From contig JBMYOQ010000001.1 of assembly GCA_049599475.1 (NCBI GenBank), forward strand, positions 96,500 through 160,499: a stretch of DNA of 64,000 nucleotides, read 5' to 3'. The notes beneath the pieces are model-generated. The model searched no databases, was not told where the DNA came from, and saw only the letters and a list, made by a program, of their open reading frames with translations. Of the stretch, positions 8,023 to 12,222 are shown piece after piece (within the stretch, counting starts at the first letter, position 1; every line of letters begins with the position of its first letter). Position numbers and translations under genes: made by a program. Source of the stretch: Opitutales bacterium. GTDB taxonomy: Bacteria > Verrucomicrobiota > Verrucomicrobiia > Opitutales > JABSRG01.

Positions 8023-8169
8023 GTCTACGAAATACACAAAAAGCACGAAATTTCTTCGCTTACTGGAATGTCGAAAATTGCGGAATACAATTTCTCGTTA
8101 TCAGAAATTCGCCCTGATCAGTGCAATAAATGCACTTAGGTGTTTGTGCTTTTCGTGTATTTCGTGGAC
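8023..8169. repeat. Palindromic MITE/REP-like element, copy 1
   Basis: Arms gtctacgaaatacacaaaaagcac (8023-8046) and gtgcttttcgtgtatttcgtggac (8146-8169) are 22/24 complementary; a related copy lies at 35549-35617. Confidence 0.75.
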
Positions 8170-8203
8170 TCCCAATTCCCTTAAACCTGTTTTAAGCTTG
8201 TTC

Positions 8204-8218
8204 TGGCATGGCAAAAGC
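8204..8218 (+). promoter_or_regulatory. Putative sigma54 (-24/-12) promoter
   Basis: TGGCATGGCAAAAGC, giving GG-N10-GC spacing, 15 nt before the leader ATG. Confidence 0.55.
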
Positions 8219-8233
8219 TGTTTACTGCATCCA

Positions 8234-8332
8234 ATGAATTCTAAAGCAATGCCAACTATGAAACCGATGACCGCGCACAAATGTGTGAACGGTGCGGTGT
8301 GGCATGCGTGGAACATGGCCTGGCGATGGTGA
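8234..8332 (+). CDS. Trp-rich leader peptide (32 aa)
   Basis: MNSKAMPTMKPMTAHKCVNGAVWHAWNMAWRW*; 4 TGG in the last 10 codons; followed by antiterminator/terminator. Confidence 0.65.
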   Translation: MNSKAMPTMKPMTAHKCVNGAVWHAWNMAWRW

Positions 8333-8408
8333 GAGGAATAGAGACTAAAATCAATATCCAAACATCGAATCCAGGCCGCGAATTTACCAGAAAATCGCGG
8401 CCTTTTTT
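8317..8408 (+). terminator. Attenuator: antiterminator overlapping an intrinsic terminator
   Basis: Terminator aggccgcga(8373-8381)/tcgcggcct(8395-8403) plus T run; alternative pairing ggcctgg+cgatg (8317-8328) with catcg..ccaggcc (8363-8377). Confidence 0.7.
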
Positions 8409-8451: not shown

Positions 8452-9165
8452 ATGAATACATTTTTAGAAAAACCCACTCAGATGCACCTCGAAAACATCG
8501 CCTTTTACGGGCGTACTTTCGATGAATATTGTGCAATCTTCAATCTGGATCCAGCGGAGCTTGAGGGGAAGCGTATCCTCGATACCGCATCAGGTTCCGC
8601 GTCCTTCGCCGCTGAATCATTGCATCGCGGTTACGATGTGACGGCGAGCGATCCGCTCTACGACCGAAGTGCTCCGTCGCTCGGACGTATCGGATCTATG
8701 GATATCGAGAGTGTAATAGCGAAAGCGCGCGAGGTGGAGAGTGTCTTTACCTTCAGTTATTATAAGTCGATTGATGAAGTCTACAAAGCGCGCTATAAGG
8801 CGATTCGAGGGTTTTTAGATGATTACCCGTCTGGACGAGCTCTAGGGCGTTATCAATGTGCATCTCTCCCGGACCTGCCCTTTAGCGATAACGCATTCGA
8901 TATTGTATTGAATGGACACTTTTTATTCCTTTATGCCGAGCGGTTAGGAGACGCGTTTGTGTTTAACGCAGTGAGCGAGTTACTGCGCGTTTCCAGCCGA
9001 TCGGTATACCTTTACCCACTGATCCAGCTAAATGGTCAAAAGTATCCACGGCTGGATGAGCTCGTTAAAAAAGTCGAAAACAACGGTGTTACTGCTGAGT
9101 TTAGGTCTTTGGAGTTTGAGTTTTTTAAGGGAGCAGACACGTGCTTGATATTAAACCAACCATGA
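8452..9165 (+). CDS. Class I SAM-dependent methyltransferase
   Basis: ILDTASGSASF motif I, LPFSDNAFDIVL, HFLFLY; start placed at MNTF, after the terminator. Confidence 0.85.
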   Translation: MNTFLEKPTQMHLENIAFYGRTFDEYCAIFNLDPAELEGKRILDTASGSASFAAESLHRGYDVTASDPLYDRSAPSLGRIGSMDIESVIAKAREVESVFTFSYYKSIDEVYKARYKAIRGFLDDYPSGRALGRYQCASLPDLPFSDNAFDIVLNGHFLFLYAERLGDAFVFNAVSELLRVSSRSVYLYPLIQLNGQKYPRLDELVKKVENNGVTAEFRSLEFEFFKGADTCLILNQP

Positions 9166-10580
9166 AACGTATCGTAATCCTCGTTTTCGAAAAAGCTGAG
9201 CTGCTTGATTTTTGCGGCCCATTCGAGATCATATCGACGCTTGAGACCGAGGATCTTGAGCCTGTGGAAGTGGTGCTCTGGAATCCGCTGGAGTCTCGGG
9301 AAATAAAGTCGGCAAACGGTGCCAGCGTGATTGCCGATGAGATCGGTGAGCTCGCTGAAGACTCTATTGACTTGCTTGTTGTTCCGGGAGGAGAGGGCTC
9401 GCGTACTTTTTTGCGCAATAGTCTAGCAATGGGGCGGCTCAGTGTCGCCTTTGGTCTAAGTGAACGCGTGTTGAGTGTCTGCACCGGTGCTCGTATTTTG
9501 GCCGCTGCGGGAGTGCTCAAAGGCTTGTGTGCGACGACTCACTCCAGTGCGCAAGTGGACCTCGCGGAAAATTATCCCGAAGTGATCTGGGATTTTTCAA
9601 AGCGGTTTCACGATAATGGAAAGTGGATTATTTCCGCAGGAGTTGCTTCAGGAATTGATGCTGCCTTGTATTGGTTGGGAAATACATTTGGCGAGAGCCG
9701 TCGGCGAGATGTCGCGCAGGCGGTAGAGGTTCCTCTTGTGGGGAATATGGCGATCTTCGGCGGCTTGGCCTATCAGATTGTCGATGCTTTCTGTACAGAT
9801 AAGTCCTTTTCGGGGAACCCGGCTGCTGTGTGTATCTTAGACGAATCGCTTCCCGATAGCATTTTACAGAAGATCGCTATGCAGCATAATCTCAGCGAGA
9901 CGGCTTATCTGAACTTTCTGGAGATACGTGAAGATTCGCCGGTATATGAACTGCGCTGGTTTACGCCGGAGGTAGAAGTTGATCTGTGCGGTCACGCAAC
10001 ATTGGCATCGGCTTCCGTTGTTTTTGATCTCAACGCGGCTTGGGAGCAGGTGATCTTTGTGACACGCAGTGGAGAGCTCCTTGTGAAAAAAGGTGCGGAG
10101 GGCTTAGAAATGGATTTTCCAAAGCTAAAATACGAGGCGGCAACCGAGGCTGATCTACTTGGAGTGGGTCTGCCAGGCGAAGTCGTAGAGGTCCAAACGG
10201 GTATGGATTTGGCGGTGGTCGTGAACGAAGCTCAAGCTTTGATGGATTGGTCGCCTAATCTCTCGGCGGTCGAAAAGTTGCCGTATCGAGGATTGATCGT
10301 TACAGCCAAGTATTCAGAGAATGGGTACGATTTTGTATCACGGTTTTTTGCTCCACAATCAGGTGTTCCCGAAGATCCGTTTACGGGGTCAGCCCACTGC
10401 TGGCTAGCTCCTTACTGGTGTGATCAGCTTGGCAAGGGAACGGTCACAGGATTACAGGCATCCAAACGTCAGGGCCGCGCAGTCTGTTCTGTGGTAGGTG
10501 ATCGCGTTTTATTGTCAGGTGCGGCTTCCTTATATTCGACCGGTTATATAGCGGTCGAGCGCCTGGTCGAAGACGAGTAG
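9162..10580 (+). CDS. DJ-1/PfpI (InhA-like) plus PhzF-family isomerase fusion
   Basis: N-terminal half ELLDFCGP, VPGG, SVCTGA, ATTH, SAGVASGID; C-terminal half VDAF..GNPAAV, NLSETA, VDLCGHATL, EDPFTGSAH; ATGA overlap with the upstream gene. Confidence 0.88.
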   Translation: MKRIVILVFEKAELLDFCGPFEIISTLETEDLEPVEVVLWNPLESREIKSANGASVIADEIGELAEDSIDLLVVPGGEGSRTFLRNSLAMGRLSVAFGLSERVLSVCTGARILAAAGVLKGLCATTHSSAQVDLAENYPEVIWDFSKRFHDNGKWIISAGVASGIDAALYWLGNTFGESRRRDVAQAVEVPLVGNMAIFGGLAYQIVDAFCTDKSFSGNPAAVCILDESLPDSILQKIAMQHNLSETAYLNFLEIREDSPVYELRWFTPEVEVDLCGHATLASASVVFDLNAAWEQVIFVTRSGELLVKKGAEGLEMDFPKLKYEAATEADLLGVGLPGEVVEVQTGMDLAVVVNEAQALMDWSPNLSAVEKLPYRGLIVTAKYSENGYDFVSRFFAPQSGVPEDPFTGSAHCWLAPYWCDQLGKGTVTGLQASKRQGRAVCSVVGDRVLLSGAASLYSTGYIAVERLVEDE

Positions 10581-10698: not shown

Positions 10699-12222
10699 TC
10701 ACCTGAAAATTGCCTGTATTTCTGAATCCGATACTTTGTGAATGGCTCGGTACCCTGGGCCTGTTTTAGGCAAGCTGGCAAAGAATGCATCGGCGTTCGC
10801 GCTCTTTGAGAGTTCGAAGCCCAGCAGTGCACGTCCGACAATTTCGCCACTGTAACGATAGTTGAAATAACAGATATTGGCGTCGCCTTGGTATTGTTCA
10901 AGGAAGCCGGATAGGGCGCCCGAGCGCTCGTGGAATTCGAGCTTGAAGAAACACATTTCCCGCTCGGTATTTGGTTGGAAAGGCAGAATTCCGAACTCGA
11001 TCGCTAAATCGTAGTCCTTTGCCTCGAATGAAATGTCCTCTTTGCGGAGGGTGGCTTCCATTTCTGCAAATTTCTCCTCAGATGCCTCGATCCCGAGGAC
11101 GGGCGTGGCAGTTTCTGATTCTGTGCGCGCATATTGGAATTCGATGACACTGGCTCCTTGCGGAAAGCACTTCATCAGTTTGAGCAAAGTGCCGGGCTGG
11201 TCTCCGATTTCAAAGCGATAGAAGCGTTTGGAGGCGGAGGTTAGGAGGGCGCGAGCAGAGATCCGGCTAAGCATCGAGAGGTCCATATTTGCCCCGCAGA
11301 TGATGACTAAGGAATTACCGCCCTTTTCCTGAACGCCGTCTTCTATCGCTCCGGCAATCCCGAGTGCGCCTGACGGCTCCGGCGTGCACCTTAAGGTTTC
11401 CCAGCACAGCTTGATGGCTCCTGATACCACATCGTTGCTCACCTGGACCGTGCGGTCTACCAGCTTTTGGCAGTAGGCAAAGGTATTTTCGCCAGCCTTG
11501 CGGACAGCGGTGCCGTCACAGAAAACGTCGACGTAATCGAGATCGACCGGTTTACCGGCCTTGAGTGCTTCGTTCATGCTGGCCTGACGTTCGCCTTCTA
11601 CGCCGATAATTTCGATCCCAGGGTAATGCACTTTTAGCCAGCACGCGACTCCGGCGATCAGACCGCCCCCGCCTATTTGAATGTAGGCGCGATCAAAGGG
11701 ACCTTTGCCAGACATCACTACTTCGTCGGCAAGGGTGCCCTGGCCACCCATGACCGTTAGATCGTCATAGGCGTGGACAAATGTTTTTCCACTGCTCTTC
11801 TGCTCGGCGACTGCGGCGTCTAGCGCTTCGGAGAAAGTGTCTCCCTCCAGGCGGATCTCGACGTGATCCCCACCGTGTTTGCGGACCGCCTCCTGTTTCA
11901 TCCGAGGGGTGGCGCGAGGCATGTAAATGGTTGCCTGGGTCTCCATTAACCGAGCTGCCAAAGCGACTCCCTGAGCATGATTGCCCGCAGATGCAGTAAT
12001 GACGCCCTTCGCGAGAGACGCTTGGTCTAGGCTCGCCATTTTATTGAAGGCACCCCGCCATTTGTAGGCATGGATAGGCGAAAGGTCCTCGCGTTTTACG
12101 AAGACGTTTCCGCTAGAAATAATCGGAAGGATCTCAAGTGGAGTCGGCTGAGCGTAGCTATAGATGCGCTGCCGTGCGTTGAGAATTTCCTGAAATAGCG
12201 GGTCTCCGGTCAGAGGATTCAT
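10699..12222 (-). CDS. ilvA: Threonine ammonia-lyase, biosynthetic (with ACT domains)
   Basis: KREDLSPIHAYKWRGA, ASAGNHAQG, GGGGLIAG, C-terminal regulatory repeats. Confidence 0.92.
   Translation of the reverse strand: MNPLTGDPLFQEILNARQRIYSYAQPTPLEILPIISSGNVFVKREDLSPIHAYKWRGAFNKMASLDQASLAKGVITASAGNHAQGVALAARLMETQATIYMPRATPRMKQEAVRKHGGDHVEIRLEGDTFSEALDAAVAEQKSSGKTFVHAYDDLTVMGGQGTLADEVVMSGKGPFDRAYIQIGGGGLIAGVACWLKVHYPGIEIIGVEGERQASMNEALKAGKPVDLDYVDVFCDGTAVRKAGENTFAYCQKLVDRTVQVSNDVVSGAIKLCWETLRCTPEPSGALGIAGAIEDGVQEKGGNSLVIICGANMDLSMLSRISARALLTSASKRFYRFEIGDQPGTLLKLMKCFPQGASVIEFQYARTESETATPVLGIEASEEKFAEMEATLRKEDISFEAKDYDLAIEFGILPFQPNTEREMCFFKLEFHERSGALSGFLEQYQGDANICYFNYRYSGEIVGRALLGFELSKSANADAFFASLPKTGPGYRAIHKVSDSEIQAIFR

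Follow-up and report, generated by a model that had tools for sequence, protein, structure and literature searches.

A conserved leader that probably couples Trp-tRNA shortage to transcription of an orphan methyltransferase gene in Opitutales

A leader upstream of an uncharacterized methyltransferase (MT) gene recurs within the order Opitutales. By its anatomy, as read from the sequence, it is a ribosome-mediated (leader-peptide) transcription attenuator. We propose that this leader probably serves as a sensor of Trp-tRNA shortage, that is, as a ribosome-coupled attenuator that admits RNA polymerase into the MT gene when Trp-tRNA is scarce. The locus that drew our attention lies in a stretch of 64,000 nucleotides from an Opitutales bacterium, hereafter the window, and coordinates are those of the window.

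Results

The leader has three parts: a short upstream ORF (uORF), an antiterminator and an intrinsic terminator, all on the forward strand. The uORF (8234..8332) runs from an ATG at 8234 to a TGA at 8332, has 32 codons and is predicted to be leaderless. It starts 28 codons upstream of GCC 8318, which we use as the pairing anchor, and has TGG codons at 8300, 8309, 8321 and 8327. The 5ʹ strand of the antiterminator (8317..8328) lies within the last uORF codons (A-W-R-W), and the 3ʹ strand (8363..8377) overlaps the 5ʹ arm of the terminator. Positions 8317–8323 pair with 8371–8377 and positions 8324–8328 with 8363–8367, taking 5 nt of that arm (-22.0 kcal/mol, z -3.05, equalled in 1 of 200 shuffles). 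The terminator (8373..8408) has a 9-bp stem (8373–8381/8395–8403), a 13-nt loop and a T6 run at 8403–8408 (-17.5 kcal/mol, z -4.67), and none of 200 shuffles was equally stable; a simple terminator scanner with an 8-nt loop limit misses it. An earlier note on this DNA had described a 32-aa uORF ending WHAWNMAWRW*, a 9-bp GC-rich terminator with a T run, and a mutually exclusive helix between 8317–8328 and 8363–8377. All three are present in the sequence, and the pairing of the helix covaries in relatives. The genome contains 249 terminator-like sites; an upstream partner as strong as that in the window accompanies 14 of them, and only the site in the window has a short ORF with at least three Trp codons in its last 12 codons. 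Upstream of the leader, after uvrA, a pair of 28-nt inverted repeats (8025–8170) forms a long hairpin. This REP/MITE-like element has related arms in paired copies on ~10 contigs of the genome, and is absent from this position in a same-genus relative.

The MT gene is present in 62 of 401 genomes of the order, and we examined all 64 loci. A terminator-like hairpin lies at most 260 nt upstream of MT at 47 of these loci. In 40 of the 47, a Trp-containing uORF ends 20–60 nt before the hairpin, and the other seven have no such uORF. The leader thus precedes MT at 40 of 64 homologous loci, spread over seven families, which bears out the suggestion of the earlier note that the target is not a trp gene. 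We anchored 38 leaders on the codon equivalent to GCC 8318, leaving two with a shifted register (L041 and L049) out of the column counts; 23 of the 38 come from a single family. Anchors were placed by eye on translations, and a rule that uses only the RNA gives the identical anchor in 28 of the 38. Six loci (L003, L014, L067, L068, L069 and L070) have split or short MT matches or an internal stop; some of these MT copies may be frameshifted, decaying or misassembled, with the leader intact.

Both pairings are conserved through compensatory change. With 36 leaders aligned by MAFFT, the antiterminator has 23 cells with changes on both sides, compared with 6.8 in shuffled alignments (no shuffle of 500 reached this number) and 4–11 in slid controls, and the terminator has both-side changes in eight of ten pairs; kinship among the leaders inflates these counts. 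The Trp codons are also conserved, and only in the uORF frame: the anchored leaders contain 68 in frame, versus three and five in the other two frames. All 38 have Trp at codons -7 to -3 relative to the anchor (one also at -8), clustered at -6 to -4 with a peak at -5/-4. There is no Trp among the 499 leader codons further upstream, where 6.8 would be expected (1 of 500 shuffles). A single Trp codon is found in the range -8 to -2 in 15 of 38 leaders. Stop codons in the range -20 to +2 occur at two loci in frame, versus 15 and 12 out of frame. Where uORF starts could be placed, 22 of 27 lie at -25 to -29; leader length is conserved. The peptide itself is unconserved apart from Trp and the paired codons. 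Other regularities lie near the anchor: the residue directly after the last control Trp is His or Arg in 24 of 38 leaders, CGA occupies +2 in 32 of 38, although CGA makes up 15% of Arg codons in the genome of the window, and the stop codon is at +7 to +14 in 19 of 38.

These comparisons sustain the idea that Trp codons form the control site, and place that site at the upstream Trp codons of the uORF. The A-[R/W]-R-W tail appears to be largely set by RNA pairing, and relatives often read ARR. Since the terminal WRW codons are largely fixed in this way, the control Trp codons are those upstream; in the window they are TGG 8300 (codon -6) and TGG 8309 (codon -3), spanning 8300..8311. The earlier note had proposed conservation of the Trp codons and pairings in relatives as a check on its reading, and the 38 anchored leaders keep both.

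We folded leaders under a masking ribosome, using RNA that ends in the terminator loop and 36 loci; L006 (unclear register) and L021 (contig end) were set aside. When the A site is placed at the first control Trp codon, the antiterminator has a probability (P) above 0.5 in 27 of the 36 loci; once the ribosome has moved to one codon beyond the anchor (+1), this is true for none of them. For the window, the antiterminator has P 1.0 when the A site is placed at 8300, whether the footprint is 9, 12 or 15 nt, in line with what the earlier note had predicted for a stall at this codon. A stall at 8309 gives P 0.85, 0.35 or 0 depending on the footprint, and P is 0 from one codon before 8318 onward; stalls from -12 to -5 all give P 1.0. 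The boundary found by masking means that the Trp codons occupy the last positions that leave the antiterminator strand free. In these folding models, the control codons are placed such that a stall frees the antiterminator.

The same models depart from the classical scheme in several respects. A ribosome at the stop codon was expected to block the antiterminator. This is so in the window (P 0), but at 14 of the 36 loci the stop codon lies too far along for a ribosome there to mask the antiterminator strand, and we infer that blocking the helix at those loci would depend on steric hindrance or on slow CGA/TGG codons. For naked RNA, the antiterminator P exceeds 0.5 in 32 of the 36 loci; the leader should accordingly turn on upon any block before codon -3 as well. 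No 1:2 protector was found, and the 5ʹ parts show no more structure than shuffled sequences do (z below -2 in one of 27), such that a conserved 5ʹ pause or protector hairpin is not supported across leaders. Hence, the trpL-type logic proposed earlier applies as far as ribosome-coupled termination and antitermination go, but not with respect to a protector or to the behavior of untranslated RNA. At equilibrium, the full leader with a stalled ribosome has an antiterminator P above 0.5 in only 12 of 36 loci, and the window reaches P 0.04 when the ribosome stalls on the last Trp codon; the terminator is the equilibrium fold in 34–36 of 36 loci under every mask. Since the terminator prevails in the full leader despite a stall, the switch would have to be kinetic, that is, dependent on the order of folding.

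The sequence upstream of the uORF suggests a σ70-type promoter and a leaderless uORF transcript in most leaders. TTG is found 36–38 nt before an in-frame ATG or GTG in 27 of 37 leaders, with other spacings scoring 1–10, and no Shine-Dalgarno-like word is present in 24 of 27. In the window, the putative -35-like box (8196..8203, forward strand) has its TTG at 8198; the distance to the uORF ATG at 8234 is 36 nt, which fits the family spacing exactly, and this block is identical in the same-genus relative. Most relatives have a hexamer starting with CAT 17 nt after the TTG; the corresponding -10 position in the window (8221..8226, forward strand), 7 nt before the ATG, is a poor match. The -10 sequence of most leaders of the order is CAT(C/A)(A)(C), not TANNNT, and trpS of the genome of the window has a canonical box. 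The CAT-type -10 may indicate a weak promoter or another factor of the σ70 family.

A σ54-like promoter had also been proposed for the window, on the basis of a GG-N10-GC motif. The GG (8205–8206) and GC (8217–8218) are indeed present, in a TGGCA-N8-GC motif (8204..8218, forward strand) that has a good -24 element and a non-canonical -12 box (AAGC, not TTGC). In this genome, GG-N10-GC has a density of 4.1 per kb per strand (0.062 per kb for TGGCA-N8-GC), too high for the motif alone to exceed chance. The motif is found at the equivalent place in only two of 38 leaders, those of the window (L001) and L002, the two genomes of this genus, so σ54 is possible for that genus only and its role is doubtful even there. 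If σ54 does drive the leader in this genus, it would add an activator-dependent layer, and this concerns the promoter alone and is compatible with sensing of Trp-tRNA. In favor of such a layer, TGGCA and GCT are kept between L001 and L002 despite a diverged spacer, the σ70 -10 is poor in both, rpoN is present in the genome of the window, and L007 has a comparable motif ahead of a leader that lacks a terminator. The exact fit of the window to the family TTG spacing argues against it, as do the restriction to two leaders, the -12 box and the lack of a shared upstream activator block between L001 and L002, the single pair that could be aligned. L007 (330 nt upstream of MT) combines this σ54-like motif with a 37-codon uORF ending R-W-H-G and with GC-rich hairpins lacking a T run, which makes it a degenerate or translational form of the leader.

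The conserved target is MT (8452..9165, forward strand), a protein of 237 aa with no Trp. It matches PF08241 just below the cut-off, and its structural model has a Rossmann methyltransferase fold (pLDDT 93.8). The best fold match has Z 12.8 and rmsd 3.3 over 168 aligned residues, at no more than 18% identity. G48 and D67, corresponding to glycine motif I and the acidic residue after strand 2, are invariant in 117 homologues. By its modeled fold, MT is a class I SAM-dependent methyltransferase, and methyl transfer is predicted; sequence and fold searches returned no close solved or named relative and no substrate. We considered a 294-aa extension of MT from an ATG at 8281 as the start of the gene, and rejected it: in the same-genus relative, a stop interrupts this frame. 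The family is widespread, with members in Bacillota, Actinomycetota, cyanobacteria and archaea, and leader-bearing members cluster on a quick tree (three changes, compared with 23.8 when shuffled).

Genes that follow MT vary between lineages. In the window, a DJ-1/PfpI + PhzC-PhzF fusion identified by Pfam (9162..10580, forward strand) overlaps the MT stop codon in an ATGA. DJ-1 and PhzF are fused at two loci (the window and L002) and separate in L010; PhzF alone follows MT in L003, L037, L051 and L056. The remaining followers are ABM-family genes (five loci), GNAT (one) and EamA (one), and often there is none. The DJ-1/PhzF gene had been regarded as part of the core target, but it follows MT in a minority of loci, and MT alone is conserved in that position. 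The ABM-family genes (111–117 aa; L028, L030, L032, L042 and L067) come from five leader-bearing loci of one family and mostly overlap the MT stop. Convergent with the operon in the window is an ilvA-type threonine dehydratase gene (10699–12222, reverse strand), with no leader peptide or terminator in the 146-nt gap upstream of it.

Leader-bearing MT proteins are depleted of Trp. Among 150 aligned proteins of at least 190 aa, the 40 that are leader-bearing average 0.48 Trp (23 of 40 have none), versus 2.16 for 98 others, none of which lacks Trp. W101 is present in none of the 40 versus 95 of the 98, and W19 in none versus 72 of 98; this loss amounts to roughly two substitutions along a single stem lineage, not to 40 events. 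Met is also halved in leader-bearing proteins (2.98 per protein versus 6.05 in other homologues). Of similar-sized ORFs in the genome of the window, 82 of 635 have no Trp, and the fused DJ-1/PhzF protein contains nine. Proteins needed during starvation for an amino acid are known to contain little of it (PMC4209129).

A second, distant group of leaders was found. Among 80 metagenome loci of the MT family, four (L132, L133, L135 and L136) have a leader, and their MT proteins fall in a separate clade, hereafter clade 2. The promoters of these leaders are canonical σ70 promoters (TTGAC-17-TATA(C/T)T) located 6–7 nt before the uORF. The uORFs are leaderless, have 27–28 codons, and in all four cases carry Trp at -4 from the GCC anchor followed by His or Arg, with an antiterminator and a terminator downstream. 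Two of the clade-2 loci were folded under a mask, and the boundary between on and off is as in the Opitutales leaders; of these two, only L135 has a 1:2 protector, and its naked RNA does not antiterminate. The leader-bearing clade-2 MT proteins have one Trp each, with W19 lost and W101 kept. Two of the leaders head operons of EamA and other methyltransferases including MT: at L132 (540–3143) and L133 (510–4853), an EamA transporter, two or three methyltransferases, DUF1330 and a cupin lie under the Trp leader. Four further clade-2 loci end before the head of their operon, and at L134 MT follows a LeuA allosteric domain. The resemblance between the clade-2 and Opitutales leaders would reflect either common descent or convergence, and either of these would tie the MT family to Trp codons.

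We saw no leader upstream of ten MT homologues from the class, four from the phylum and four in a proteobacterial sample, nor at 76 of the 80 metagenome loci, 15 of which have less than 230 nt of upstream sequence. A covariance model of the leader (R1) gave 11 matches up to E 5 in its own genome and 30 listed matches across 151 genomes of the order. All strong matches are the MT leaders used to build the model, once per genome and only before MT; the 18 weaker matches that we inspected are ordinary gene-end terminators or matches in coding sequence. R1 gave a single weak match among the 80 metagenome loci and missed the clade-2 leaders, and hence does not show that divergent leaders are absent. 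A genome-wide search for the combination of a σ54 motif, a Trp uORF and a terminator returned this locus only, and a regulon of this kind in the genome was rejected.

Three trp genes appear not to be regulated in this way. In the genome of the window and five leader-bearing relatives, trpE, trpB and trpS have no such leader within ~400 nt. All six genomes have trpE and trpB, and this suggests that Trp homeostasis as such is not obviously run by such leaders there. Likewise, leuA of the genome of the window has no leader. No Rfam family matches the leader at its gathering score, no leader family is listed up to E 5, and the uORF peptide matches nothing in Pfam or NCBIfam. We found no description of this leader in the literature searched, although genome-wide attenuator catalogues in subscription journals or supplements could list it. 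In the same literature, we also found no leader-peptide attenuator for Verrucomicrobiota and none for Opitutus.

Discussion

How would the leader work? We suggest that transcription from a σ70-type promoter begins on or beside the start codon of the uORF, and that translation follows immediately as a result. When Trp-tRNA is ample, the ribosome would reach the A-[R/W]-R-W-stop segment and cover the 5ʹ strand of the antiterminator, as folding and covariation indicate; the terminator would then form and the RNA would end near 8408. When Trp-tRNA is short, the ribosome would wait at Trp codons three to seven codons earlier, the antiterminator would capture the 5ʹ arm of the terminator first, and MT, in the window together with DJ-1/PhzF, would be transcribed. 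Under this model, MT would have shed the Trp residues conserved in its family in order to be makeable under Trp shortage.

The arrangement resembles E. coli trpL and the other classical attenuators (trp, leu, his, phe, thr, ilv) in having a short uORF, here with Trp codons, a competing antiterminator with an intrinsic terminator, and predicted read-through upon stalling. It differs from trpL in several ways. The target here is MT, with no leader at trpE, trpB or trpS. There is no 1:2 protector, such that untranslated RNA is predicted to read through. The uORF has ~30 codons and is predicted to be leaderless, the antiterminator loop is 30–72 nt long, and the leader has no match in Rfam. In target, protector and Rfam match alike, it is not a member of the trpL family. 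The W/R-rich tail is similar to that of the P. aeruginosa TrpL1 and TrpL2 peptides, and stalling at Pseudomonas trpL also reports hypomodification of tRNA-Trp (PMC13434334). Streptomyces has a single-Trp leader, trpL2, before trpS, and leaderless leaders are also listed for this genus (PMC8079986). That case is similar in that one Trp codon suffices and that a gene outside Trp biosynthesis answers Trp-tRNA shortage, and different in that the target is TrpRS itself, the sequence is unrelated and the system is actinobacterial.

The mycobacterial whiB7 leader and Chlamydia YtgR offer further comparisons. Efficient translation of the whiB7 uORF leads to termination and poor translation to the antiterminator, codon content decides which shortage is sensed, and a single Trp codon can confer Trp sensing (10.1101/2023.06.02.543512). 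There are also differences: the whiB7 uORF is long and enriched in Ala, its target is a regulator and a response to antibiotics has been shown, whereas in the present leader Trp codons lie at a fixed distance from the paired strand. Attenuation at trpRS1 is said to respond to indolmycin, and in Chlamydia, which is grouped with Verrucomicrobiota in one superphylum, Trp codons reportedly attenuate YtgR, a non-trp case; there, the codons lie inside a long protein-coding gene, with no dedicated leader and intrinsic terminator.

Could the leader sense something other than Trp-tRNA? One option, which we consider fairly improbable, is a general sensor of translation stress similar to that of whiB7, in which any failure to reach the last codons, through blocked initiation, an antibiotic that targets the ribosome or lack of any amino acid, causes antitermination, Trp codons only add sensitivity, and MT, PhzF, ABM, GNAT and EamA are detoxification genes. 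The behavior of naked RNA in 32 of 36 loci, the uniform P of 1.0 for stalls from -12 to -5 in the window, the identity of the followers (PhzF, ABM, GNAT, EamA and DJ-1) and the lack of leaders at trp genes are all consistent with such a sensor. However, it does not account for the way in which both distant clades keep Trp to one narrow position and avoid it upstream, nor for the loss of conserved Trp from MT, and the naked RNA of L135 does not antiterminate. Stress sensing is also compatible with a response to Trp-tRNA, since drugs may induce the leader as a side effect. Arrest by the nascent peptide, as in the sensors TnaC and SpeFL, is improbable in our estimation. In that case a W-[H/R]-x-x-A contact in the tunnel and a small ligand, the substrate or product of MT, would set how long the ribosome dwells on the antiterminator strand. 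His or Arg after the last control Trp in 24 of 38 leaders and in all four clade-2 leaders, the conserved leader length, the excess of CGA at +2 and the 19 leaders with stops at +7 to +14, which need dwell upstream of the stop, fit this idea. The floating position of Trp, from -7 to -3, does not; the Ala and Arg codons are accounted for by pairing, and Trp loss in MT is not predicted.

The alternative that we regard as very improbable is a terminator that acts constitutively and sets free a small Trp-rich peptide or an sRNA with a function of its own, for example as a substrate of MT, with the competing helix incidental. The dominance of the terminator at equilibrium under every mask is consistent with this, and trans functions of a leader peptide, of the peTrpL type, reportedly exist. 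Set against it are the covariation of the antiterminator, the lack of peptide conservation outside Trp and the paired codons, and the lack of an evident separate promoter for MT in the ~50 nt after the T run. We continue to favor a sensor of Trp-tRNA shortage as the probable function of the leader. In its favor are the compensatory changes in both helices, the in-frame Trp codons and their placement, the second clade and the Trp loss of MT. Several observations weigh against it: the single Trp codon in 15 of 38 leaders, the lack of leaders at trpE, trpB and trpS, the antitermination predicted for naked RNA, the equilibrium folds, the stop codons that escape masking at 14 loci, the origin of 23 of 38 leaders in one family and, for the Trp loss, the few substitutions, the halved Met, the Trp-free ORFs elsewhere in the genome and the nine Trp of DJ-1/PhzF.

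What is the role of the enzyme? Tentatively, MT could methylate, and so inactivate, a small molecule that blocks Trp supply or the charging of Trp-tRNA. We favor this speculative role because neighboring genes encode modifiers of small molecules and an exporter. Salvage of Trp is a rather unlikely alternative, and feedback through modification of tRNA-Trp is unlikely. More broadly, two distant lineages would place an orphan MT family under a leaderless, protector-less Trp attenuator, and MT could be the core of an undescribed rescue pathway for Trp-tRNA shortage, hence the purge of Trp from the protein. The pathway might then disarm a natural inhibitor of the Trp pathway or of TrpRS, salvage indole compounds or modify tRNA-Trp, in organisms whose trp genes are not under attenuation; we offer this, too, as a tentative suggestion.

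The leader gives a first functional handle on a widespread and uncharacterized methyltransferase family. Both the regulation of MT and its purge of Trp point to tryptophan stress, and this narrows the search for a substrate to compounds of the Trp pathway and tRNA-Trp. The leader would also add a minimal, three-segment, leaderless attenuator design from Verrucomicrobiota, in which sensing through Trp codons is probably used for a purpose other than Trp synthesis.
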